Notes: generated from the sequence alone by a model not told the origin. Positions 2,965 through 14,737 are shown, numbered from the stretch's first letter. The stretch is 64,000 nucleotides of DNA from Alphaproteobacteria bacterium (GCA_965200095.1 OZ241350.1:694853-758852), one strand, 5' to 3'. Program-made: numbers and translations.

Positions 2965-3471
2965 TCAGCCGCCGGAGTCGGGAGCGAACACGGTCGCGCG
3001 CTCGATCTCCTCGACGTTCTCCGGGCGCGGGAACGGCGCGGGCGCGGCCTCGCCGCGGACCCGCGGGCGGCCGACCGCTTCGAAGAAGTCCTCGAGGCCG
3101 CCGGGCGTCAGCATCCAGGTCATCTTCAGCTCGTCCGCGCCCTCGTTGACGATGCGGTGCGCGTTTCCGGGGCCGAGGAAGACCATGGCGCCGGGTTCGA
3201 CCCGGTGCGCGGCGCCGTTCACCTCGACGCGCCCGGTCCCGGCGAAGAAGAACAGGACCTCCGCCTCGCGCGCATGGGCGTGTTCGCGCACATGGCCGCC
3301 CGGGGCGATGGTCTGGACGCCCGCCGAGAACCCGCGCACGCCGGGGTTGTCGCGCGGCGACAATTTGACCTCGGCGTATCCGTTCGCCGGCACAGGCTGC
3401 CAGTAGCTGCGCCCGGCGTCCGCCCCGGAGACCACGACCGCACCGCGTTCGCCGCGTTCCTTTCCGTCCAT
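2965..3471 (-). CDS. cupin domain protein
   Basis: 168-aa product from the internal ATG. Cupin motifs G(x)5HxH...E and G...H: [21 protein letters not shown] and [14 protein letters not shown]. The ORF-track start at 3549 has no good context; ATG at 3471 chosen. Confidence 0.7.
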
Positions 3472-3540
3472 CGCCTTCTCCTTCCCCCGTCGGGCGCATG
3501 GTGGCGCAAGCCGCAGGCTCCGGCAACCGCCGGCGCGCGG
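3441..3540. repeat. left copy of an about 100-bp imperfect direct repeat (cupin 5' end plus upstream); right copy at 9404-9500
   Basis: Direct comparison: gccgcgttcctttccgtccatcgccttctccttcccccgtcgggcgcatggtggcgcaagccgc versus gccgcgttcctttccgttcatcgcttcctccctgtcgggcgtatggtggcgcaagccgc, about 85% identity. Confidence 0.5.
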
Positions 3541-3654
3541 GCGCCGCAACGCGCTGCAGTCGAGGAGGCCGCGCGCGGGGCAGTGGCGCGCCGGGGCGGG
3601 TGTCGCGACGCGCTACCCTCGGGATGTACTCCGGTCCGCACGGTAATTTCGAGC

Positions 3655-3714
3655 TTGACAAAAGGCGTCGCCCTCCCCACATGCTGGCCCAGCACCAAAC
3701 GGGAGGCCTGACCC
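3655..3714 (+). promoter_or_regulatory. putative promoter/RBS region of the Ubl-E2-JAB/E1 operon
   Basis: TTGACA at 3655-3660. Strong SD GGGAGG at 3701-3706, 8 nt before ATG 3715. No convincing -10 found. Confidence 0.25.
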
Positions 3715-4017
3715 ATGAGTGATGTTCCGGGCGGCGGCAAACGCGGGGCGGGGCCGGTGGCCACCGTAGGCGATGCAACGGAGAGTAACCGCGTGCAAAT
3801 CAAGGTGAACGGAGTCTCCGTCACGGTCACAGAGACCGTCTTGATACGCGAAATGCTGGAAGCGGCAAAAAACGAAGGTGCTATTGAAGGGTTGGTCAAA
3901 GAGTACGCCATTGAAAGGGTCAAGGAGGAAGGGGAAATCGGGATTGAGGAAATCATCACTGTGAAGGAGTTTGAGGAATTCTTGGCCGTGCCGACAGAAC
4001 CGACTCCGGTCGCATAG
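3715..4017 (+). CDS. small beta-grasp (ThiS/MoaD/ubiquitin-like) protein with acidic C-terminal extension (putative Ubl)
   Basis: 100 aa. The core IKVNGVSVTVTETVLIREML resembles the ThiS-type hxVNGxxhxhxxxxTlxxLL start of a beta-grasp. First gene of an operon with E2-like and JAB-E1 genes. Does not end in Gly-Gly, so processing would be needed. Confidence 0.4.
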   Translation: MSDVPGGGKRGAGPVATVGDATESNRVQIKVNGVSVTVTETVLIREMLEAAKNEGAIEGLVKEYAIERVKEEGEIGIEEIITVKEFEEFLAVPTEPTPVA

Positions 4018-4052
4018 CTAAATCGTAACTTCACGTGACCGGAGAAGGGTAC

Positions 4053-4439
4053 ATGAGCGTCGACGGTCGGATCGCCGGCGAATTGGAGGCTTTGGGTTAT
4101 CGACCCGAGATATTCGATGCCGAGACATCGGGCGGTCAACAGCGAGTCGTGACATTCCCATATCGCATAGGCGTCGGCCGATTCAAGGGCGAGATACGGA
4201 ATGTCGGTATTTCCACACAGTGCGAGGCGGTCGGATATCCTGAAACTCCGCCACACTGGATATTCATCAGCCCTCCGATAACCGATACGAAAGACGGCGG
4301 CCACCACGGAGTAAACAGCTTTGCCGGGAGAGAATGGGTCGCGTTGAGCCGCCCTCCGGGCGCATTTTGGGACAGAGTCCGGCACAAGGGTATGAGAGCG
4401 TATCTGGAGCATCTTTCCAGGGTCTGGTCCCGGATATGA
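4053..4439 (+). CDS. E2-like (UBC-fold) conjugating-enzyme candidate
   Basis: 128 aa from ATG 4053 (SD GAGAAGGG); the ORF-track GTG at 4035 has no RBS. A conserved Cys in ISTQCEAVGYPETPPHWIF and a hydrophobic core are compatible with a prokaryotic E2. Sits between the Ubl-like gene and the JAB-E1 fusion; stop overlaps the next start (ATGA). Confidence 0.45.
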   Translation: MSVDGRIAGELEALGYRPEIFDAETSGGQQRVVTFPYRIGVGRFKGEIRNVGISTQCEAVGYPETPPHWIFISPPITDTKDGGHHGVNSFAGREWVALSRPPGAFWDRVRHKGMRAYLEHLSRVWSRI

Positions 4440-5896
4440 GGCGGGCAGACTGGCATGAGGTCGTCCTGACATCGGAGGCCAACGACGCGGCATGCGACCA
4501 TCTCCTCCGGCACCACCGGCGTGGAGAATTGCAGGAAGACCTTTGCTTCGGCTTGTGGACTCCGAGCACCGGAGCGGAGCGGGAGACAGCCATCGTCACT
4601 GCCGTTTTGCCGCCCGCCAAGGGCGAACGAAGCCTGCATGGAAATGCGAGCTTCGAATCGCGCTACCTGACAAGGGTCGTCCGGGCGGCTATCAGGCGCG
4701 GTCAGGGTTTGGCGTTCATGCACAGCCATATGAGCGCCGGATGGCAAGGCATGAGCGCGACAGACGTCGAGGCGGAGAGGGATCGCATTGCGGACACCGC
4801 GAGAGCGACCGGCAAGCCGCTGGTCGGAATGACGGTGGGAACCGACGGCCATTGGAGCGCCAGGGTCTGGAAAGACGGGACGGCCGGCAAAACGAGGATA
4901 TGGTCCAGGAAGGTCAGGGTTCTGGAAAGGAGCCGGTTGCTGATTTGGGAGCGACCGGTATCAAGGAGTGCCGATCGTCGAAAACAGCGACGAACCGTCG
5001 ACAGTTGGGGAGAGGAACGACAGCGTCGCTTGGAAGCGTTGCGGATAGGCATTGTCGGCGTCGGCAGTGTAGGCAGCGTCGTAGCGGAAGGCCTCGCGCG
5101 AACGGGCTTACGCGAACTGGTGCTGATCGACCATGACGTTATAGAGCCGCATAATCTGGACCGTATGCTGAACACCAGTGCAAGGGATATCGGACGCTTC
5201 AAGACCGACGTTGCCGAGAAGGCGGCGCGACGAGCCAGCACCGCCGACGAAATCCGGATCGTAAATCATAGAAGAAGCATAAGAGATAAAACCGCATACG
5301 CGGCTGCGCGGGACTGCGACATTCTGGTAAGTTGCGTCGATAGTCCTGTAGCGCGAGATATCCTCAACAGAATATCCTACAGAGACGCCATTCCAGTTGT
5401 GGATGGCGGTGTGGAAGTACGAAAAGATCCGCAAAGCGGAAACATGAACGCCGCACGATGGAAATCGCATGTGGCGAACCCCTATACGGAATGCCTGAGA
5501 TGCAAAGGCCAGTACATATCGAGCGACGTGATGCTGGAGCTAGATGGATCATGGCGGAACCCCGACTACATCAAGGGGTCGGCAGGATCGGAGAAGGGGG
5601 CGGAGAACGTCTTTTGTCTGAGTTTATCGGCGGCGAGCGAGATGTTGAACATGACGTTGCGGATGCCGATCGCCGAAGAGTGGTGGCCAGAGCAGGAGGG
5701 TGTAGAACGTAACTTCGTAACCGGTAGGACCAAGAAGAGAATCGGCGGCTGTCATAAGAACTGCTCGGTAAGCCAGCAGAAGTGGGCGGGCGACGATGCG
5801 GGCGCGATTCTATATCTCCGCGACAGGGACGTCCGTCCGGGATTCGCCGTTCTGAATGGGGTTGCAAACATTTTCCGGCGGTTGGTAAGGCTATGA
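4436..5896 (+). CDS. JAB/MPN (JAMM) peptidase - E1-like (ThiF/MoeB) fusion protein
   Basis: N-terminal JAMM-like motif E...HSHMSAGWQGMSATD (HxH...S..D). Central Rossmann motif IGIVGVGSVGSVVAEGLARTGLRELVLIDHDVIEPHNLDRM, typical of E1/ThiF. CxxC (CLRCKG) downstream. ATGA overlaps at both ends (4436 and 5893). Confidence 0.8.
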   Translation: MRRADWHEVVLTSEANDAACDHLLRHHRRGELQEDLCFGLWTPSTGAERETAIVTAVLPPAKGERSLHGNASFESRYLTRVVRAAIRRGQGLAFMHSHMSAGWQGMSATDVEAERDRIADTARATGKPLVGMTVGTDGHWSARVWKDGTAGKTRIWSRKVRVLERSRLLIWERPVSRSADRRKQRRTVDSWGEERQRRLEALRIGIVGVGSVGSVVAEGLARTGLRELVLIDHDVIEPHNLDRMLNTSARDIGRFKTDVAEKAARRASTADEIRIVNHRRSIRDKTAYAAARDCDILVSCVDSPVARDILNRISYRDAIPVVDGGVEVRKDPQSGNMNAARWKSHVANPYTECLRCKGQYISSDVMLELDGSWRNPDYIKGSAGSEKGAENVFCLSLSAASEMLNMTLRMPIAEEWWPEQEGVERNFVTGRTKKRIGGCHKNCSVSQQKWAGDDAGAILYLRDRDVRPGFAVLNGVANIFRRLVRL

Positions 5897-6921
5897 TGAA
5901 AACAACAGACGAAAATTGGTGCGAGTTAATGGAGAAACTACATGACGTTAGCAAGCGCGTATCCAGGAGGCCGCTCTACATTGGGGAAATGCACGGCCTG
6001 CTACACGACAATTTGATTCTTTGCGCGCTGTTTCAGAACTTACCGGAAACAGGCGCTGGCTTGGTTCACTATACGTCATGGGAAAACGCACTGAACATGT
6101 TCAATGAATATGGTAACCCGGTAATGAGAATGTATAATTATGAGCAGTCTAATGACCCGGACGAGGGTAAAATCAAACCTAAAGAATGGGAAGAAGTGGA
6201 AAGAAACGTTGATCCGATTGACAAAAGTCAGAAAGATAACGACGGCAGGAAAAATGATTTCGAATACGACAGAAATACATACGGATGTTCGTTTTCTTCC
6301 GGTGGAAAGGGAGTCGAGGATGACCTGATGTACTGGAGGATGTACGGAAATAATGGGGAAGGATGTTCTTTGAAAATAACTCCCCCGAGTGCGCGCAAAC
6401 TAACGTCGCCGAGCACGCATAAACAAGATATATTAAGGGTGTGTTACCGTGACAAGGATTCCTCCGATAGGTGCGATCAGGAAGAGATTGAGGATGGAGA
6501 GATCGCCGTACGATTGCGCAAATTTTTCGCAGTCTGCACGGATATTGTCAGTAAAACTAACGGCAAATATCCGATTGAGGCAGAATTCATTGTAAGAAGA
6601 CTTCGCGAGATCGTTCGTGGATGTTATCACTTGGTCAAACATAAGAATTACGCAGTGGAGCGCGAGTGGCGCATGATTAAGGTTGCGCCGAATTCGGAAG
6701 CAATTCGATTCGATACGACGGGAGGAGGTCTGATTAGACGGTACATTGAGGGCCCTTGTCTGAAGGAAATTCTGAGTTCTGCTTCGGTCATAACGATAGG
6801 GCCAACCGTGCCCAACGGCGGTGCCGCGCGAGCCTATATTGAGTATCTGGCCAAGACAAAGCACGGAATACAGCATGTGGAAGTAAAAAATTCCAATCAA
6901 AACTATCGACGGCAATTGTAA
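5893..6921 (+). CDS. hypothetical protein, low-GC, possible effector or target of the Ubl system (DUF2971-like motif?)
   Basis: 342 aa from ATG 5893 (MMKTTDENW...), overlapping the E1 stop by ATGA. Visibly AT-rich compared with its neighbours. Motif LVHYTSWENALNMF...NDPDEG is reminiscent of the YxYTS...NDPxE signature of DUF2971; this is a weak recollection. Confidence 0.55.
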   Translation: MMKTTDENWCELMEKLHDVSKRVSRRPLYIGEMHGLLHDNLILCALFQNLPETGAGLVHYTSWENALNMFNEYGNPVMRMYNYEQSNDPDEGKIKPKEWEEVERNVDPIDKSQKDNDGRKNDFEYDRNTYGCSFSSGGKGVEDDLMYWRMYGNNGEGCSLKITPPSARKLTSPSTHKQDILRVCYRDKDSSDRCDQEEIEDGEIAVRLRKFFAVCTDIVSKTNGKYPIEAEFIVRRLREIVRGCYHLVKHKNYAVEREWRMIKVAPNSEAIRFDTTGGGLIRRYIEGPCLKEILSSASVITIGPTVPNGGAARAYIEYLAKTKHGIQHVEVKNSNQNYRRQL

Positions 6922-7010: not shown

Positions 7011-7865
7011 CTAGGCTCAGGACTCATAACCAGAATATGACGGTTGCGGCGATGCAGATGGCGCTGAAGAAGGTGTGCGCGCAGCGGTCGTATCGCGTGG
7101 CGATGCGTCGCCAGTCCTTGAGCCGACCGAACATGCGCTCAACGAGGTTGCGTTGCTTGTAAAGCCCGGCATCGCAGGCGACCGGCTTCTTGCGGTGCGC
7201 CCGTCCGGGGATGCAGGGGGCGATCCCGCGTCCCTCCAGGGCTTCGCGGAAGCGGTCGCTGTCGTAGCCCTTGTCGCCAATCGGGACATTCGCGTCCGGC
7301 GGCAAGGCGTTGAACATCATCGCGGCGCCGCGATGGTCGCTGACCTGCCCTTCGGTCAGCAGCATGATCGGGGGCTTGCCGTCGCCGTCGCAGACCGCGT
7401 GCAGTTTCGAGTTGAGGCCGCCCCGGGTGCGTCCGATACAGCGCGAAAGAGCCCCTTTTTTAGCAGACTGGCTGCGGTGCGGTGGGCCTTCAGATGGGTG
7501 GCGTCGATTATCACCGTCCCCGTTGCCCGGCCCTCCGCCGCCAGGGCCGCGAAGATGTGGTTGAACACGCCGGCCTCGCTCCACCGCACGAAGCGGTTGT
7601 AGAGGGTCTTGTGGGGACCGTATTCGGAGGGCGCGTGACGCCAGATGAGGCCGTATCGGATCACATGGATGATGCCGGAGATGACGCGCCGGTCATCGAC
7701 CCGGGGCACGCCGCGGACCTTGTTGGGCAGCAGCGGCCGGATGCGATCAAATTGGGTCTCGGAGAGCCAGAACTGGTGGTCGGACATGGTGCACCCCCTG
7801 TATCTGGTGGCAGCACACCACACATCCTAACCCAACGCAACCCCCTTTATGGGTCCTGAGCCTAG
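7011..7865 (-). mobile_element. IS5-family insertion sequence, copy 1 (IS427/IS1031-like subgroup)
   Basis: Terminal inverted repeats ggctcaggactcataa / ttatgggtcctgagcc, flanked by CTAG on both sides (4-bp TSD typical of IS5). Two overlapping transposase ORFs. Near-identical copies at 18075-18923 and 59834-60682. Confidence 0.85.
7024..7787 (-). CDS. IS5-family transposase OrfAB (programmed -1 frameshift at A6G within LLKKG)
   Basis: OrfA MSDHQFWLSETQFDRIRPLLP...HLKAHRTAASLLKKG and OrfB ...GDKGYDSDRFREALEGRGI...RNLVERMFGRLKDWRRIATRYDR (DDE) in overlapping frames. Confidence 0.8.
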
Positions 7866-7964
7866 GTACCAAACGAGTTGATCGCAACATTTGCAGGACG
7901 GCGCCCCGTCCCCTATGCTCCGCCATCGTCCGCTTCCCGGCGCGGGCTGCGAACGGAGACCGGC

Positions 7965-8708
7965 ATGGACCCGGACCTGGCAGGCTTCATCGGCCTTGCG
8001 GCATTGATGGTGACGCTCGTGGCGTGGCTGCGCGTCGACATGGGCGGACGCATGGACCGCCTCGACGAGCGCATGGGCCGCATCGAGACCACGCAGGCCG
8101 AGCACGGCGCGGCGCTGTCCGCGCACGGCGCAATGCTCTCCCAACAGGGCGAACGCCTGACGCGCATCGAGGCGACCCAGGCCGAACAGGGCGAACGCCT
8201 GACGCGCATTGAGGCGACCCAGGCCGAACAGGGCGAACGCCTGACGCGCATCGAGGCGACCCAGGCCGAACAGGGCGAACGCCTGACGCGCGTCGAGACG
8301 GCGCAAGCCGAACAGGGCGAGCGCCTGACGCGTATTGAGGCGACGCAAGCCGAACAGGGCGAACGCCTGACGCGCATCGAGACGACCCAGGCCGAACAGG
8401 GCGAACGCCTGACGCGCGTCGAGACGACCCAGGCCGAACAGGGCGAACGCCTGACGCGCGTTGAGATGGCGCAAGCCGAACAGGGCGAGCGCCTGATACG
8501 CATCGAGGCCGCGCAGAACGAGTTGCGCGAGCGTGTGGACGGAATGGACGCCGAACTGCGCGCCGAAATGCACGCCGCGCGCGCCGATCTGGCGCGCATC
8601 AACGAACGCATGGCGCGCACCGAAGGCACTGTGGCCGGGGCCCTCGGACGCCCCTTCCCCGAACTCATGACGCGCCCGGCCGACGCCGCAGCCGCAGCCG
8701 CCGAATAG
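7965..8708 (+). CDS. membrane-anchored coiled-coil protein with nine tandem 14-aa repeats (QAEQGERLTRIEAT)
   Basis: ATG 7965 (MDPDLAGFIGLAALMVTLVAWL = an N-terminal TM helix) followed by 9 x 42-bp in-frame repeats, then a coiled-coil tail. Function unknown. Confidence 0.6.
   Translation: MDPDLAGFIGLAALMVTLVAWLRVDMGGRMDRLDERMGRIETTQAEHGAALSAHGAMLSQQGERLTRIEATQAEQGERLTRIEATQAEQGERLTRIEATQAEQGERLTRVETAQAEQGERLTRIEATQAEQGERLTRIETTQAEQGERLTRVETTQAEQGERLTRVEMAQAEQGERLIRIEAAQNELRERVDGMDAELRAEMHAARADLARINERMARTEGTVAGALGRPFPELMTRPADAAAAAAE
8148..8526. repeat. 9 x 42-bp near-perfect tandem repeats, in frame within CDS 7965-8708
   Basis: Repeated unit ggcgaacgcctgacgcgcatcgaggcgacccaggccgaacag with few substitutions. 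Confidence 0.8.
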
Positions 8709-8817: not shown

Positions 8818-9196
8818 ATGGACCCGGACCTGGCAGGCTTCATCGGCCTTGCGGCGTTGATGGTGACGCTCGTGGCGTGGCTGCGCATCGACATGAACGG
8901 GCGCATGGACCGTCTCGAGACCGCACAGGGCGAGCGCCTGACGCGCATCGAGGCGACGCTGTCCGAACACGGCGCAACGCTGTCGGCGCACGGCGAACGC
9001 CTGATACGCATCGAGGCCACACAGCACGAGTTGCGCGAGCGTATGGACGGACTGGACGCCGAACTGCACGCCGCGCGGGCCGACCTGTCGCGCATCAACG
9101 AACGCATGGCGCACCGAAGGCACAGTGGCCGGGGCCCTCGGACGCCCCTTCCCGGAACTCATGACGCGCCCCGCGGACGCCGCAGCCGCCGAATAG
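8818..9196 (+). pseudogene. second tandem copy of the coiled-coil gene, contracted to 1-2 repeats and with a 3' frameshift
   Basis: Upstream region and N-terminus (MDPDLAGFIGLAALMVTLVAWL) duplicated from 7890-8000. Only 1-2 repeat units. A 1-bp difference (atggcgcgcaccgaagg versus atggcgcaccgaagg) shifts the frame, so the conserved C-terminus (TEGTVAGALGRPFPELMTRPADAAAAE) falls out of frame. Confidence 0.45.
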
Positions 9197-9403
9197 TCCC
9201 GCGCGGGGTCTGCGCGATACCTGTCCGCGACCTGCGCCATCACGCCCTCGCCTTCGAAACAGCGCCGCGTGTCCGTGGGCCGGAGTCGTCGTCAGCCCTT
9301 GCAGGTAATAGAGCGAGAGCGGCGGGTTGATGAGGAAGCCGAGCACCCCGGCGCCGACCAGATTCCAGAACGCCGCCGCCAGGAAGAATATCAGCGGCAG
9401 GTG

Positions 9404-9500: not shown

Positions 9501-9896
9501 CCGCGTCACGACGATGAGCGTTACCCGGGGGAACGACCGCAAGGGCCCCGCAGCGTTGCGGCAAGGCGGGGAACTGCGCCGGACGCCCGCGGATGCGACG
9601 GCGCGCCGCCTCGAAACGGTTCTTGCGGGTCGAAACGGGAATCGCCGGCGACGGCCGGCGGTCCCTGTCGGCGGGTCCCGGCATCGGACCCCCGGATATG
9701 TCGCGTCGGCGCTCCCGGAGACGATCGCAGCCGGCCCGCCGCGCCTCGGCAAGGGCCGACCCTGTCCGGACACACGCGAGACACGGCGCGTCCGGGCCCT
9801 TATCCGTGGCCGGAAGCCCGCTTGCCGCCGGGACGGGCTGCGGGGAGCGGCGAACCGGCACGTTGATCGCCAGCTGCGCTCATGGTAGCGTAGGGC

Positions 9897-9962
9897 TACC
9901 TCTTCATCGGGGCCTCTTCATCGGGGCCTCTTCATCGGGGCCTCTTCATCGGGGCCTCTTCA
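9897..9962. repeat. 14-bp tandem repeat (cctcttcatcgggg) x about 4.6 in the leader/promoter of the autotransporter gene
   Basis: Seen directly: ctacctcttcatcgggg cctcttcatcgggg cctcttcatcgggg cctcttcatcgggg cctcttca. Ends 24 nt before ATG 9986; SD GAGGAAG at 9971-9977. Confidence 0.85.
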
Positions 9963-9985
9963 GATTTGTCGAGGAAGCCCCTTTC

Positions 9986-12900
9986 ATGCCGAGAATCGAC
10001 CTTGTCATCCGTCGCATCCGCCGCGGCGGTTTCGCGGCCGCGCTCCTTGCGTCGCTTCTTCCCGCGTCCGACGGGGCGCATGCGCAAGCGGCGGCCTGCA
10101 CGCCGACGCAAACGGTCAGCGCGCAGGCGGACGCGAACGGCGTCTACACCACCACGCTGACCTGCGCGGACACTTCCGCGGCGGCGGGGGCGGCGGACTA
10201 CCGGCAGCTCCACTACAACCATGGCGCCGCATACGGGACGAACCCGGCCGACCGCGACGCGAACCTCGCGAACAACAACGCTTACAATAACCTGGCCCTC
10301 ACGATCGGGCGCGGCGTGATATTCACCGCCGACGGCTACAACGACAACAGGCTCACGGTCACGGACGGCGCCATCCTCCTGTGGAACGCCGGCGCCAAGA
10401 CCGTAACCATGGAGGACGGCGCCGTCATCAAGCTCGAACGGACGCCGGCCTACTGGACAGCGACGGATCCGGACCGCCCGATGTCCGCGACGCCCCAATA
10501 CGACCCGGCATGGTACCCGACCTGGCGGCACGCCCTGGACAACCTCGTCGGCATCGGCGCCTATTCGTATACCGGCGCGGACGGCGACGCGGACATCACG
10601 ATCGGGCACCACGGCGTCATCGACATCGACATCGACATCGGCGGCACCTACGGGAAGAACGGGTATTACGACGCCAGCGCCGGCCGCGCCATCGATGTGC
10701 AGGTAAAGGACACCGGCGGCGCCTCCGCCGCGCGCGCCGACCTCGACGTTCTCATCGAGATGGGGGCCACCGGCGTCATCCGGCATGTCGAGGGCTCCGA
10801 CGGCCTGAGCGGCATCTACGTGGAGAACTTCAGCGAGGAGGGAGACATCAGGATCGACCTGGCCGAAGGCTCGCTGATCGACGTCTCCGAAGGGGGCGGC
10901 TACGGCGTCACGGCGCTGCTTCGCAGGGACGCCGCCAACAACAACGGCCAGCGAACCGGCGACCTCATCGTCAACGCAGCCGGAACGATCAGGGCGGCCG
11001 CGAGGAGCCGGGTGCAAAGCTTCCAGCACGGCTACGGCATTTTCGCCGACCAGGGCGGACACACCGGCCGGGTTCGCGTCGTCTCGTCGGGAACCATCGA
11101 GACCGTGCAGGGCCCCGCCATCGACGCGAGGGCATGGAGAAGCACCCAGACGCACCGCGACGACCCCGACACCGCGGAGATCGAAGGGCACATCGTCGAC
11201 GTAACGGCCGGGACGATGGAGACCCGGGGGACCACCGCCGTCTACGCCTCCACCGGCAGCGCCAACTCCCACATGACGGTCCGGGTGGCGGAGGGCGCCA
11301 CCGTCCGCGCCCAGGCGCTCACGGACGAGGACTATGCGAACGGCGCCCTCACGCAGGAAACCCTGGGGGCCGACGGAAGCCCATACATCATTTCCGGCAT
11401 CTACCGCTATCACGGATGGCGGAGAGTGGACGTGGAGCAGACGACCGACAGCGGCGCGACCGTGACGGTGAAGCGGCTGGAGCCGATCATTACCGGCATC
11501 GCGGTCCGCGATTTCTCGTCGAGTCCCAACGCCGACGGCTTGAGGGACCAGGTGCTCGTCGACGGGACTGTCGAAACGGTCGGCGGCAAGGCCGGCGTGG
11601 ACCCCGCCATCTGGCTGGAGAGCGGCGGGCTGGTTACCGTCGGGGCGAACGGGCGCGTCAGCGCGGACTCCGGCATTGCGATTTCGGGCGGGTGCTTCAC
11701 CGATTACCGCAAGGTCGATTTCGTCAACATAGATTCGCCGGTCGATTGCGACACGGCAGCGCCCCGCACCCTCGAGGTGAGGGTGGCCGGGACGGTCGAA
11801 GGCGACATCCGCGTGCTCGACGACGGCGTCCTGAATTTCAGGTCGATGGAAGGCGGGACGGTCGCGGGCACGGTGCACGACCCCGCCGGCCCGCTGACGG
11901 TGGCGGGCAGCGTCGGGCGTCTGCTTTACACCGACGGCGGCGCGGTGACGGTGACAGGCACGGGGCGCCTCACCGGCGTCGACGGCGTGGCGTTGCGCAG
12001 CGAGTCGGGCGATCTGAGCCTGACCGTTGCCGACAAGGGCGTGGTTACGGGCGATGTCCAGGCGCGCGGCGGCGGCCGGCTGATGCTGGATGTGAGGGAA
12101 GGCGGGACGATTTCGGGAACGGCGCACGACCCCGTTGGCCCGTTGACGGTGGCCGGCAGCATTGGACGCCTTCTCTACACGTCCGGCGGCGCGGTGACGG
12201 TGACGGGCACGGGGCGTCTCACCGGCGTCGACGGCGTGGCGTTGCGCAGCGAGTCGGGCGATCTGAGCCTGACCGTTGCCGGCATGGGCGTGGTTGCGGG
12301 CGATGTCCAGGCGCGCGGCGGCGGCAAACTGACGCTGGATGTGAGGGAAGGCGGGACGATTTCGGGAACGGCGCACGACCCCGTTGGCCCGTTGACGGTG
12401 GCCGGCAGCATCGGGCGTCTGCTTTACACCGACGGCGGCGCGGTGACGGTGACGGGCGCGGGGCGTCTCACCGGCGTCGACGGCGTGGCGTTGCGCAGCG
12501 AGTCGGGCGATCTGAGCCTGACGGTGGCCGGCATGGGCATGGTTACGGGCGATGTCCAGGCGCGCGGGGGCGGCCGGCTGACCCTGGACCTGAAGGAAGG
12601 CGGGACGATTTCGGGGACGGTGCACGACCCCGCCGGCCCGCTGACGGTGGCCGGGAGCATCGGGCGGGTGCTCTACAGTTCGGGCGGCGCGGTGACGGTG
12701 ACGGGCGCGGGGCGCCTCACCGGCGTCGATGGCGTGGCGTTGCGCAGCGAGTCGGGCGATTTGAGCCTGACCGTTGCCGACAAGGGCATGGTGACCGGCG
12801 ATGTCCGGGCGCGCGGGGGCGGCCGGTTGACCCTGGACCTGAAGGAAGGCGGGACGATTTCGGGGACGGTGCATGACCCCGTCGGCCCGCTGACGGTGGC

Positions 12901-14737
12901 GGGCAGCATTGGACGCCTCCTCTATGCCGACGGCGCCGCGGTAACGGTGACGGACACGGGGCGCCTCACCGGCGTGGATGGCGTGGCGCTGCGCAGCGAC
13001 GCCGGCGACATCGACCTGACGGTGGCCGGCCTGGCGACGGGCGACATCGACGCGCGCGGCGACGGCGACCTGACGGTCGCGGTGTCGGGGACGGTCGACG
13101 GCGACATTTTCGGGCGCGGCGCGGGCGAACACACAGTGACGGTGGCGCGCGGCGGCGCGGTAACCGGGACCGTGGACCTCGGCGCGAGCACTGTGACGAC
13201 GGACGGCGCCGTGGGGCGGGTTCGTTTCGAGCGCGGCGGCGCGGCGACGGTAGGTTCGACGGGCCGGATTTCCGGTATCGACGGCGTCGCGGTCGACAGC
13301 CGTTCGGGCGACCTGACGGTGACGGTGGCCGGCCTGGCGATGGGCGACATCGACGGGCGCGGCGGCGGCGACCTGACGGTCATGGTGTCGGGTAGGGTCG
13401 ACGGCGATGTCTTCGGACGCGAAGCCGGCGAACACGAGGTGACGGTGGCGCGCGGCGGCGCGATAACCGGGACCGTCGACCTTGCCGGCGACGGCGCTGT
13501 GACGGTGGAGGGCATGGCGGGGAGGATTGACTTCGAGCGCGACGGCGCCGTGACGGTGGGGCCGGAGGGCCGCATCTCCGGCAGAGACGGCGTGTCGATA
13601 GAGAGCCGTTCGGGCGCCCCGGCGGTGACCATCGTGGCGTCGGCGGGCGAGTCGCTGCGCGATGCGGTGGGGCGCGTCGGCGGGGCGATCGTCGCAGCCG
13701 AGGGCGAGCCTTCGGTGATGCTCGGCCGCGAGGGCGAGACGGGGTCGATAACGCTCGGCGGGCTCGGAACGGCGCGCTCGATCCCCGAAGGCGCCTACGA
13801 TGTGGGCGTGGTGCGCACGGCGTCGGGCGCGTTGCGCGCGGTGAGCCGGCTGGCGGCGCGCACCCGCGTCTACGAGGCTCTGCCGTCGCTGCTTCTGGGG
13901 ATGGAGCGCACGGCGTCGCACGCCGACCGTGCGGCGGCGCCCCGCGCGTCGGACGGGACGTGGGCGCGCGTCGATGCGTCGCGGGGGTCGTGGGAGGCGG
14001 CGAGTTCGGCCAATGCGGGGACCGGCTACGACCGTCGCGGTTTCTCGTTCCAGGCCGGCCTGGACGCGGTCCTGAGCGAGGAGACGCGCGCGGGTCTGTC
14101 GGTCCACTGGCGCCGGGCGACGGCGGAGGTGTCGCGCAACGGCGGCGAGATCGAGGCCCGGGGCGCGGGCGTGGGTCTGTCGGCAACATGGTCTCCGGGG
14201 CCGTTCTTCGTGGACGGCCAGGCGGCGGCGACGCTCTACGATGCGGACCTGAAATCGACGCTGCGCGGGAGGCTGAAGGACGATGTCGGGGCGCAGGGCC
14301 TTTCGGCGGCGCTGGAGGCGGGGCGCACGGTTCCCGTGGCCGAGGGCGTTACGGTGACGCCGCGGGCGCGGGTGGCCTGGTCGTCGCTGTCGCTTTCGGG
14401 CTTCGTCGACGACGCGGCGGGGGCGCGGGTGTCTCTGGACCGGGGCCGGAGTTTGACCGGTCGCGCCGGGGCGCTGGCGGAGCGCGTCCTGGGCGAAGGG
14501 GGCCGCATCTTCGGCTCGGTGGATGTGGAGCGCGAGTTCTCGGCGGAGACGCGGATGTCGGTCGCGGGGACATCGCTGGAGACGGCGGGCGAGGAGACGC
14601 GCTATATGGTCGGGGTCGGCGGCGAGCATGGCTGGGAGGATGGCCGCTTCGCGCTGCGCGGCGCGCTGGACTATGCGATGTCCGGCGGCGATGCGCGCGA
14701 CTACGGTGCCCGCGCCAGCCTCTCGATGCGCTTCTGA
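9986..14737 (+). CDS. autotransporter (type Va) adhesin-like protein with repetitive passenger domain
   Basis: ATG 9986 followed by signal peptide MPRIDLVIRRIRRGGFAAALLASLLPASDGAHAQAA. Gly/Thr/Val-rich beta-helix-like passenger. C-terminal roughly 270-aa autotransporter beta-barrel ending ...YGARASLSMRF (terminal aromatic). Confidence 0.85.
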   Translation: MPRIDLVIRRIRRGGFAAALLASLLPASDGAHAQAAACTPTQTVSAQADANGVYTTTLTCADTSAAAGAADYRQLHYNHGAAYGTNPADRDANLANNNAYNNLALTIGRGVIFTADGYNDNRLTVTDGAILLWNAGAKTVTMEDGAVIKLERTPAYWTATDPDRPMSATPQYDPAWYPTWRHALDNLVGIGAYSYTGADGDADITIGHHGVIDIDIDIGGTYGKNGYYDASAGRAIDVQVKDTGGASAARADLDVLIEMGATGVIRHVEGSDGLSGIYVENFSEEGDIRIDLAEGSLIDVSEGGGYGVTALLRRDAANNNGQRTGDLIVNAAGTIRAAARSRVQSFQHGYGIFADQGGHTGRVRVVSSGTIETVQGPAIDARAWRSTQTHRDDPDTAEIEGHIVDVTAGTMETRGTTAVYASTGSANSHMTVRVAEGATVRAQALTDEDYANGALTQETLGADGSPYIISGIYRYHGWRRVDVEQTTDSGATVTVKRLEPIITGIAVRDFSSSPNADGLRDQVLVDGTVETVGGKAGVDPAIWLESGGLVTVGANGRVSADSGIAISGGCFTDYRKVDFVNIDSPVDCDTAAPRTLEVRVAGTVEGDIRVLDDGVLNFRSMEGGTVAGTVHDPAGPLTVAGSVGRLLYTDGGAVTVTGTGRLTGVDGVALRSESGDLSLTVADKGVVTGDVQARGGGRLMLDVREGGTISGTAHDPVGPLTVAGSIGRLLYTSGGAVTVTGTGRLTGVDGVALRSESGDLSLTVAGMGVVAGDVQARGGGKLTLDVREGGTISGTAHDPVGPLTVAGSIGRLLYTDGGAVTVTGAGRLTGVDGVALRSESGDLSLTVAGMGMVTGDVQARGGGRLTLDLKEGGTISGTVHDPAGPLTVAGSIGRVLYSSGGAVTVTGAGRLTGVDGVALRSESGDLSLTVADKGMVTGDVRARGGGRLTLDLKEGGTISGTVHDPVGPLTVAGSIGRLLYADGAAVTVTDTGRLTGVDGVALRSDAGDIDLTVAGLATGDIDARGDGDLTVAVSGTVDGDIFGRGAGEHTVTVARGGAVTGTVDLGASTVTTDGAVGRVRFERGGAATVGSTGRISGIDGVAVDSRSGDLTVTVAGLAMGDIDGRGGGDLTVMVSGRVDGDVFGREAGEHEVTVARGGAITGTVDLAGDGAVTVEGMAGRIDFERDGAVTVGPEGRISGRDGVSIESRSGAPAVTIVASAGESLRDAVGRVGGAIVAAEGEPSVMLGREGETGSITLGGLGTARSIPEGAYDVGVVRTASGALRAVSRLAARTRVYEALPSLLLGMERTASHADRAAAPRASDGTWARVDASRGSWEAASSANAGTGYDRRGFSFQAGLDAVLSEETRAGLSVHWRRATAEVSRNGGEIEARGAGVGLSATWSPGPFFVDGQAAATLYDADLKSTLRGRLKDDVGAQGLSAALEAGRTVPVAEGVTVTPRARVAWSSLSLSGFVDDAAGARVSLDRGRSLTGRAGALAERVLGEGGRIFGSVDVEREFSAETRMSVAGTSLETAGEETRYMVGVGGEHGWEDGRFALRGALDYAMSGGDARDYGARASLSMRF
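11852..13030. repeat. 249-bp (83-aa) tandem repeats, about 4.7 copies, inside the autotransporter passenger domain
   Basis: Unit GGTISGTAHDPVGPLTVAGSIGRLLYTDGGAVTVTGTGRLTGVDGVALRSESGDLSLTVAGMGVVTGDVQARGGGRLTLDVRE starts at 11852, 12101, 12350, 12599 and 12848. Antisense ORFs of 237 nt recur every 249 nt. Confidence 0.8.

Follow-up and report, generated by a model that had tools for sequence, protein, structure and literature searches.

A four-gene cassette in a low-GC island

A 64,000-nucleotide stretch of the genome of an Alphaproteobacteria bacterium (GCA_965200095.1 OZ241350.1:694853-758852; hereafter the window, with positions counted from its first letter) contains, at 3715-6921, a cassette of four co-directional, translationally coupled open reading frames (ORFs) on the + strand whose products resemble the components of a bacterial ubiquitin-like conjugation system. 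The first gene, g1 (3715-4017), codes for a predicted ubiquitin-like protein (Ubl) of 100 amino acids, and g2 (4053-4439) for a 128 aa E2-like protein modelled with a UBC fold. The third, g3 (4436-5896, 486 aa), joins an N-terminal JAB/JAMM metallopeptidase domain (4436-4960, ~aa 1-175) to a C-terminal E1/ThiF adenylation domain (4961-5896), and g4 (5893-6921) codes for a 342 aa DUF2971 protein predicted to be ADP-ribosyltransferase (ART)-like. With GC fractions of 0.56 (g1), 0.57 (g2), 0.59 (g3) and 0.46 (g4) as against 0.71 in both flanks, the cassette forms a low-GC island. A preliminary description of the locus had already pointed to an AT-rich fourth gene and to a Ubl/E2-like/JAB-E1 conjugation operon, and both claims are supported by the present analysis.

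The coupling of the genes is apparent at two ATGA junctions, placed at 4436 and 5893 in that description and present at both sites: g2 and g3 overlap at 4436-4439 (...GGATATGAGGC), and g3 and g4 at 5893-5896 (...GCTATGATGAA). In the window g1 and g2 are separate genes: g1 stops at a TAG (4015-4017), and g2 is read in another frame. The start of g2 is taken as the ATG at 4053, which is preceded by a ribosome-binding site (GGAGAAGGG), with a GTG at 4035 as the alternative. The starts of g1 to g4 used here are preferred over longer ORFs because the orthologues start at equal residues and retain the 4-nt overlaps.

A JAB-E1 fusion resembling BubCD

The motifs that the preliminary description had quoted for g3 are all present, namely a JAMM HxH...D motif (HSHMSAGWQGMSATD, nt 4721-4765), a Rossmann motif (IGIVGVGSVGSVV...LIDHDVIEPHNLDRM) in which the Gly-rich loop GVGSVGS is followed by NLDR, and a CxxC (CLRC, C353/C356, nt 5492-5503), to which a second pair, C439/C443, can be added. 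The catalytic set of the JAB domain (E34, H96, H98, S107, D110) is invariant in 40 homologues and in the distant relatives. The best match of g3 among the sequences of solved structures is the Citrobacter BubCD protein (9ea4; phmmer E 1e-20, profile E 2.6e-27), with an alignment that covers both domains: the JAMM signatures coincide (HSH on HSH), and the Rossmann core is matched as far as residue 331. The ThiF, JAB, Prok-E2 and β-grasp models that had been proposed for recognizing these proteins were recovered unevenly: Pfam ThiF matches g3 at 1.8e-33, but no Pfam JAB model does so at E <= 0.1, Prok-E2_E is weak and below threshold for g2 (E 0.07), and g1 has no direct match.

Examination of the alignment of the 40 g3 homologues indicates that, besides the JAMM set and the nucleotide-binding motifs, C353, C356, C439, C443, Y360 and Y378 are invariant. 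When the alignment is widened to the diverged subfamily and to two relatives from actinobacterial plasmids, Y360 and C439 lose their invariance and Y378 (nt 5567-5569), in the crossover loop, retains it within a (D/N)P-x-Y-(I/V) motif. At the position of a further cysteine, C395, relatives have Ser, Asn, Pro or Ala. A profile comparison by hhalign with the JAB-E1 protein of a Bradyrhizobium plasmid (99.7% probability), which can be regarded as Bub-type because its operon includes an annotated DUF6527 gene, matches NPDY378I to QDP-YL within the crossover region. BubCD itself lacks a crossover cysteine and requires its invariant Y370 for conjugation, Bub chemistry proceeding by oxyesters on a Tyr of the E1 and a Ser of the E2 (Ye et al. 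2024, 10.1101/2024.11.21.623953). By this analogy Y378 is likely to be the E1 nucleophile, and oxyester chemistry is favoured over thioester chemistry on the grounds that the conserved Tyr378 aligns with the Bub-type crossover Tyr and that there is no conserved non-zinc cysteine.

Structural zinc sites of the CxxC type are known in MoeB and ThiF, and the CxxC...CxxxC arrangement of g3 (C353/C356, C439/C443) is most likely a comparable structural site. The preliminary description had treated the E1 Cys or CxxC as a catalytic target, a view against which the probable zinc role of these cysteines, the lack of conservation of C395 and the invariance of Tyr378 all speak.

The relationship to MoeB and ThiF also raises the question of whether the cassette could serve metabolism as a sulfur carrier of the kind formed by MoeB/ThiF and MoaD/ThiS, in as much as the NCBIfam ThiF and MoeB models score highest for the Rossmann core. 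However, all NCBIfam scores lie far below the family cut-offs (79.5 vs 275, 66.9 vs 449), the carrier does not end in GG, and the E1 is accompanied by JAB and UBC-fold partners. A scan of genes flanking the 14 related loci gave no match to a moa, moe, thi or rhodanese family, and the low-GC island is scattered across phyla. These scores, partners and gene contexts effectively refute the metabolic reading, which the preliminary description had set against defence and to which we assign a negligible probability.

An E2-like protein with an invariant serine

An alignment of 41 sequences gave a confident AF2 model of g2 (pLDDT 89.8), which shows a UBC fold. Sequence-based searches with g2 found no match in NCBIfam, PADLOC or PHROGs, its profile gave chance matches only against solved-structure sequences, and hhalign comparisons of the g1 and g2 profiles with single Bub-type sequences were not significant. 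Inspection of the alignment reveals invariant residues that include H68, S99, R100, W106 and D107. The S99-R100 pair (Ser99 codon at nt 4347-4349) is invariant in the 41 sequences and also in the diverged subfamily and the actinobacterial relatives. The distance of Ser99 from the C-terminus, 29 residues, is identical to that of S333 in BubB (362 minus 333), and it precedes the conserved Trp by 7 residues, a spacing which is 6 in a BubB-type E2 and 8 for the catalytic Cys of UbcH5. On the basis of its invariance and position, Ser99 is probably the E2 nucleophile. Where Type I BubB has S-x-H and an Asp, g2 presents S-R and His68, the equivalence of the latter being drawn from a weak alignment.

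The preliminary description had instead emphasized a Cys-containing E2. The cysteine in question, Cys57, is at least 90% conserved within the close family, and this conservation, together with the CxxC of the E1 and the matches of the PADLOC E1-E2 and BilD models to the Rossmann core, could be read as a conventional thioester cascade of the Bil or Cap2 kind, running through Cys57 and an E1 cysteine. However, Cys57 precedes the YPxxPPHW strand rather than occupying the UBC catalytic position, and it is Gly or absent in the two diverged loci (L012, L013), Rhodococcus and M. avium, all of which retain (L/H)-S-R and PPHW. The E1 cysteines form the zinc-type C-x2-C...C-x3-C set apart from C395, which is replaced in relatives. 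The PADLOC matches (a weak BilD Rossmann match at 1.5e-7 and the E1-E2 models) are confined to the adenylation core at residues ~180-370, and no BilA, BilB or BilC match was found in the cassette. The thioester reading, which we consider very improbable, is rejected because its E2 cysteine is neither universal nor correctly placed and its E1 cysteines are zinc-type or variable.

A predicted ubiquitin-like protein that ends in alanine

The g1 protein consists of a Gly/Pro-rich N-terminus of ~25 aa followed by a single predicted Multi_ubiq-type β-grasp segment and ends in ...FLAVPTEPTPVA immediately before the stop codon, with Ala100 at nt 4012-4014. Its family is characterized by a variable Gly/Pro-rich N-terminus and ~75 aa of the form (Q)IKVNG...L..A...GAIEG...Y.IERV..EGE......V.E.EEFLAVP.G.T.VA, a pattern seen in all 13 close homologues and in 8/9 genome-locus orthologues. 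The terminal ...T-x-V-A is invariant in 13/13 of the former, and the stop codon follows it directly in 8/9 of the latter. When 1.84 billion representative proteins were searched with the family profile, only 28 were found. The more distant of these (80-130 aa) share KVNG...F(I/L)(A/T)(V/I)P..PT.VA followed by the stop. Although g1 itself matches nothing in Pfam, NCBIfam, PADLOC or PHROGs and its profile found only chance matches among solved-structure sequences, the family profile recovers a protein (P0214, E 3.7e-8) which matches Pfam Multi_ubiq (PF14452) at 1.3e-7, over the cut-off, and 5/25 family members match that model at E <= 0.01. By these sequence criteria g1 probably belongs to a Multi_ubiq-type Ubl family.

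The conserved end of g1 leads to the prediction that Ala100 is the conjugated residue. Since the stop codon directly follows the conserved TxVA, the Ubl of the window would be translated in its mature form with no need of processing. Hence, the non-GG tail noted in the preliminary description stands, in that the protein ends in Ala, but the JAB processing it was thought to imply does not apply to this copy. In relatives the situation differs: the Ubl and E2 are fused in frame in L007 and P0208 with ...VA at the junction, as in BubAB, and tails of 2-9 residues extend past the VA in the Ubls of L004, L018, P0206, P0223 and P0225, both of which fit cleavage by the JAB domain after the Ala. At two more distant loci, L023 (3381-3647) and L024 (566-811), the Ubls end in ...RGPTPTS, i.e., with a C-terminal Ser. 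Taken together, the Ala and Ser ends suggest that the carrier Ubl uses a small terminal residue other than Gly. There is a parallel in the CD-NTases conjugated by Cap2, which can also end in Ala.

A DUF2971 protein as the fourth component

The product of g4, which has the lowest GC (0.46) and evolves fastest of the four genes, matches Pfam DUF2971 (PF11185) at 33.4 bits (gathering cut-off 22), as do 10/10 of its orthologues. Along the + strand it carries H59-Y60-T (from nt 6067), NDPDEG, WRMY151G and E256-R-E258-WR (nt 6658-6666), and the alignment of the family defines as invariant H59-Y60-T, R79-M-Y, N87-D-P-x-E-G, S-F-S, W148-R-x-Y151-G, G-x-G-C-S, E256-x-E258-(W/Y)-R and T-x-G-P. One study assigns DUF2971 proteins to the HYE clade of the ADP-ribosyltransferases, where DarT and AbiGi are their closest neighbours, and describes a motif-II Tyr that is strictly conserved together with an ExE motif (PMC12522546). 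Another reports Aristaios, a single-gene DUF2971 abortive-infection system active against phages and found on Lactococcus plasmids, with an ART-like AlphaFold model (PMC11381338). The corresponding residues of g4 (H59 as the motif I His, Y151 as the motif II Tyr and E256-x-E258 as the motif III ExE) are all invariant, and g4 is predicted to be ART-like by reference to these two studies. The preliminary description had seen in g4 a partner with no known enzymatic domain, and in this respect it is superseded. The g4 profile returned chance matches only, nothing informative, against solved-structure sequences, and, among the published papers examined, those naming DUF2971 make no connection between this domain and Ubl machinery.

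Distribution of the cassette and its genomic setting

A protein search with g3 gave 288 matches at E <= 1e-5; among the 120 listed, identities range from 59-86% and nearly all matches are full length. The order g1-g2-g3-g4 is kept at 9/9 genome loci, with the same 4-nt overlaps, and at 3/3 metagenome loci, and both loci of the diverged subfamily (2/2; L012, L013) have all four genes with g4 in convergent orientation, one g4 copy being cut by the contig end. Thus, 14/14 related loci, from four bacterial phyla and with unrelated flanks, carry the four genes (the host lineages being Gamma- and Alphaproteobacteria, Vicinamibacterales and Longimicrobiales), a linkage far beyond chance. Identity to the genes of the window decreases in the order g2 (62-78%), g3 (59-74%), g1 (47-70%) and g4 (35-46%). 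In the diverged subfamily the E2 is ~48% identical to that of the window, and the convergent g4 matches the g4 alignment with a probability of 99.3% by hhalign (E 2.6e-20). At L012 (1-5217) the diverged cassette stands between the type I restriction-modification genes HsdS and HsdR; upstream of it are ThsB-TIR, Nmad2, MazG_C and UDG matches and a weak HEPN-like match, which amounts to a dense defence island.

The GC content of the cassette falls below that of its flanks in the window and at 8/9 genome loci, and the flanks, which differ at every locus, consist mostly of defence and mobile genes. These include transposases, toxin-antitoxin genes (PIN, MazE), a DUF1156 methylase, AAA-ATPase_like/PDDEXK_9, SIR2, an N6_N4 methylase with HNH, type I and type III restriction-modification genes, ThsB-TIR and PglZ (BREX). 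This setting points to an anti-phage or conflict function. No relatives were found in a phage database or in viral contigs, which argues that the cassette is not a phage-borne module. In the window itself the cassette is preceded by uvrB and a cupin gene divergent from g1 and is followed by an insertion sequence (IS) element; no CD-NTase cyclase or metabolic partner was found among these neighbours, in line with the earlier remark that a CBASS cyclase is lacking.

Beyond these 14 loci, Ubl-E2-JAB/E1 cores occur with other partners, such as DUF6308 in Rhodococcus, a sigma factor and an ATPase in M. avium, a convergently oriented 572-aa HD-domain protein at L023, and DUF6527 with a TCAD9/APH kinase-like protein in Bradyrhizobium. 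The positional equivalents of the Ubl on the Rhodococcus and Bradyrhizobium plasmids are labelled 'multiubiquitin domain-containing protein' by NCBI. Like the cassette, Rhodococcus pNAPH (WP_193904017-019; 'multiubiquitin domain-containing protein / hypothetical / ThiF family') has a split three-gene core, and the actinobacterial cores resemble it further in a Ubl ending ...PVA/...DVA (...APVA in Rhodococcus), an E2 with H-S-R and a JAB-E1 with P-x-Y-I; they differ from it in having only 35-41% identity, no DUF2971, and DUF6308 or a sigma factor as neighbours. Given these different partners, the core for conjugation behaves like a portable module whose fourth component can be exchanged; in two subfamilies, that of the window among them, DUF2971 is fixed.

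The Bradyrhizobium operon (L019; Bradyrhizobium sp. 62B plasmid p1, 2874-6969) is of the DUF6527 (Bub) type with a separate Ubl, which ends ...FFAVPPATFG-HGTY, i.e., in a Gly plus a tail. Its E2 ORF (~3112-3492) is missing from the PLSDB gene table, and a 529-aa TCAD9/APH kinase-like gene is situated between the JAB-E1 and DUF6527 genes, an arrangement which departs from both the Type I and the Type II scheme as published.

Comparison with described conjugation systems

The preliminary description regarded a JAB-E1 fusion with an extra AT-rich partner as falling outside the described canonical architectures. As regards the fusion this does not hold, as such fusions are a component both of class 6e of Iyer 2006 (PMC1779556) and, as BubCD, of Type I Bub operons (10.1101/2024.11.21.623953). 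Class 6e combines a JAB-E1 fusion with a (poly)Ubl and with an E2/RWD-like protein devoid of cysteine, and solo-Ubl and unfused variants were noted (PMC1779556). The cassette has 3/4 of its components and the same sporadic, mobile distribution; however, the fourth component of the class, a C-x3-C...H-x2-C zinc protein now known as DUF6527, was not found in it by a single-query tblastn search, and DUF2971 is not mentioned in that account (PMC1779556).

The Type I Bub operon (6E.1) consists of BubAB, BubCD and BubE, and it has been stated that 'all Bub operons possess bubE' (10.1101/2024.11.21.623953). With it the cassette shares a JAB/JAMM-E1 fusion with a single adenylation domain and an intact JAMM site, an E1 without a conserved crossover cysteine and with an invariant crossover tyrosine, a UBC-fold E2 which is structurally closest to BubB and has an invariant Ser and no conserved catalytic Cys, a predicted Multi_ubiq-type Ubl with an F-x-A-V-P motif, and a defence-island context. 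There are also differences. The Ubl and E2 are separate genes (fused only in L007 and P0208) as against the BubAB fusion; the Ubl has a terminal Ala (a Ser at L023 and L024) as against a C-terminal Gly exposed by JAB cleavage; the E2 has L/H-S-R and an invariant H68 in contrast to S-x-H and Asp; and a predicted ART-like DUF2971 protein takes the slot of DUF6527/BubE. In sequence neither the E2 nor the Ubl is detectably similar to BubB or BubA, and a tblastn search for DUF6527 (BubE) with a single query protein found nothing credible in the window or the related loci. The core of the cassette, then, matches Iyer class 6e and is Type I Bub-like, short of the BubAB fusion, the C-terminal Gly and BubE and equivocal with respect to the S-x-H/Asp site of the E2.

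The gene content that the preliminary description likened to Bil and Cap2/Cap3 modules does bear a resemblance to them, but a looser one than to Bub. The Bil system has a separate BilC JAB, a BilD E1 with IAD-AAD-CYS organization and a cysteine E2, as opposed to a JAB fused to a single-adenylation-domain E1; in type II CBASS, Cap2 is an E2-E1 fusion that conjugates the CD-NTase and the JAB is separate, whereas the E2 of the cassette is a gene of its own. Aristaios (PMC11381338) and the DarT-like family (PMC12522546) share with g4 the DUF2971 domain with its H/Y/ExE residues, a likeness by domain and published description; unlike the stand-alone Aristaios gene, the DUF2971 gene of the cassette is translationally coupled to the Ubl, E2 and JAB-E1 genes.

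A proposed mechanism and its alternatives

In light of the above, we consider it moderately probable that the cassette represents a predicted conjugation system of four genes, mobile by horizontal transfer and akin to Bub (Iyer class 6e-like), in which a DUF2971 ART-like protein replaces the DUF6527 protease. The Bub-like identity of its machinery is well supported, and for its action we infer oxyester chemistry, adenylation of an alanine and a role in defence. In such a system g1 would be translated in mature form, ending at Ala100, as the conserved position of its stop codon shows. The E1 domain of g3, which has the ATP-binding motifs of the ThiF fold, could then adenylate the Ala100 carboxylate, and Tyr378 of the crossover loop, by its alignment with the Bub-type E1, would receive the Ubl as an oxyester in the absence of a conserved non-zinc Cys. 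From there the Ubl could be handed to Ser99 of g2, the nucleophile suggested by invariance and position, and transferred presumably to lysines of the target. Where relatives carry a tail or a fused E2, the JAB domain would cleave it off, and it would probably also undo conjugation. Lastly, and as the weakest step, g4 might serve as the output or effector, with the state of conjugation being coupled to a DarT-like ART toxin that causes abortive infection.

Several observations weigh against this proposal. The ART assignment of g4 derives from the literature, and the AF2 model of g1 (13-sequence alignment) is too poor (pLDDT 47.8) to show the Ubl fold. The direct alignment of g3 to the Citrobacter BubCD ends at 331, short of the crossover loop and Y370, so the equivalence of the tyrosines is based on the single Bradyrhizobium relative. 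In g2 the Ser-x-His and Asp set of Type I BubB is wanting and sequence similarity to the BubB-type E2 is undetectable. As for the genomic context, metabolic neighbours occur at L003 and L016, no CapW/BrxR or CapH/CapP regulator was seen adjoining the cassette, and distant Ubl-E2-JAB/E1 cores (Rhodococcus, M. avium plasmids, L021, L023, L024) are without DUF2971, so that the link to DUF2971 could be specific to a subfamily.

The latter cores are also consistent with g4 being an independent defence or toxin gene beside a self-sufficient three-gene Ubl core, which might, for example, tag phage proteins as does Bil. The GC content of g4, distinctly below that of g1-g3, and the ability of DUF2971 to act alone, as seen in Aristaios, agree with such independence. 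However, g4 is kept directly after or overlapping g3 in 14/14 loci across phyla as the other neighbours change, and the ATGA overlap implies co-translation; in view of this we regard an independent g4 as quite unlikely.

Conversely, DUF2971 could act within the Ubl pathway, whether as a substrate adaptor or E3-like factor, as a replacement for the BubE deconjugase, or by ADP-ribosylating the Ubl, E2 or target so as to gate conjugation. Its gene follows that of the JAB-E1 protein, in exactly the position of BubE, the two are translationally coupled, and the linkage persists even with the changed orientation in L012; moreover, ARTs that act on ubiquitin are known, such as SidE and CteC. The lack of homology to DUF6527 in the single-query search, the presence of a JAB peptidase already available for deconjugation and the action of Aristaios as an abortive-infection defence on its own, which favours an autonomous effector, make this a possible but rather unlikely alternative.

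A variant in which the Ubl cascade and DUF2971 share a substrate can also be envisaged: the ART might place ADP-ribose on phage or host DNA or protein and the Ser-E2 esterify the Ala-terminated Ubl onto that ADP-ribose, or the ART might ADP-ribosylate the Ubl. The ubiquitin-ADP-ribose hybrid marks made by DELTEX and PARP are a eukaryotic counterpart. What speaks for it is that the genes are strictly linked and that the predicted chemistry is not of the thioester kind, neither of which is specific to this scheme, and we hold it to be highly unlikely.

In terms of the proposed Bub-like system with a DUF2971 partner, the cassette can be viewed as a sister lineage which follows the same cysteine-free E1/E2 logic as Bub and differs from Bub in its Ala-terminated Ubl, its E2 motif and the predicted ADP-ribosyltransferase that replaces the deconjugating protease. 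The Bub pathways were defined in 2024 from operons gathered via their DUF6527 gene (10.1101/2024.11.21.623953), and relatives lacking that gene would for this reason have been invisible to the survey. The JAB-E1 cassette with DUF2971 recurs in the defence islands of several phyla and, as far as we could find, is not described in the literature. If the proposal is correct, it would provide a compact 3.3 kb four-gene system with an obvious candidate output enzyme for a bacterial Ubl cascade, and would broaden E1 chemistry to Ubls that end in Ala or Ser. It would also add a new type of defence system to annotation pipelines, with PADLOC and NCBIfam at present recognizing only the ThiF core.

Flanking sequences and repeats

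The intergenic region 5' of g1 (3550-3714, + strand), which separates it from the divergent cupin gene, presumably holds the promoter and a GGGAGG ribosome-binding site. A consensus scan detected no sigma-70-like site in it, leaving the promoter as a presumption; a promoter and terminator scan gave a result no better than that with shuffled sequence, and no direct repeats were found flanking or delimiting the island. The IS element, of the IS5/IS427 type, lies at 7011-7865, starting 90 bp past the stop codon of the cassette. It has 19-nt terminal inverted repeats and two overlapping transposase ORFs (DUF4096, DDE_Tnp_1_2) in a layout typical of programmed frameshifting.

Further downstream, 7878-8708 and 8818-9330 form a paralogous pair of ORFs with similar N-termini, the first of which carries 8.7 copies of a 42-nt repeat (8143-8509) coding for 14-aa units (EQGERLTRIEATQA) and is probably a coiled-coil protein whose repeat number varies. 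A giant autotransporter-like ORF of 1714 aa follows at 9593-14737, with a 249-nt repeat in 4.6 copies (11848-12999; 83-aa units) in its passenger region. Just 5' of its likely signal-peptide start (MPRIDLVIRR...) there is a perfect 14-nt tandem repeat (CCTCTTCATCGGGG, 4.6 copies, 9899-9962), which, because its period is not a multiple of 3, is a candidate switch for phase variation by slipped-strand mispairing.

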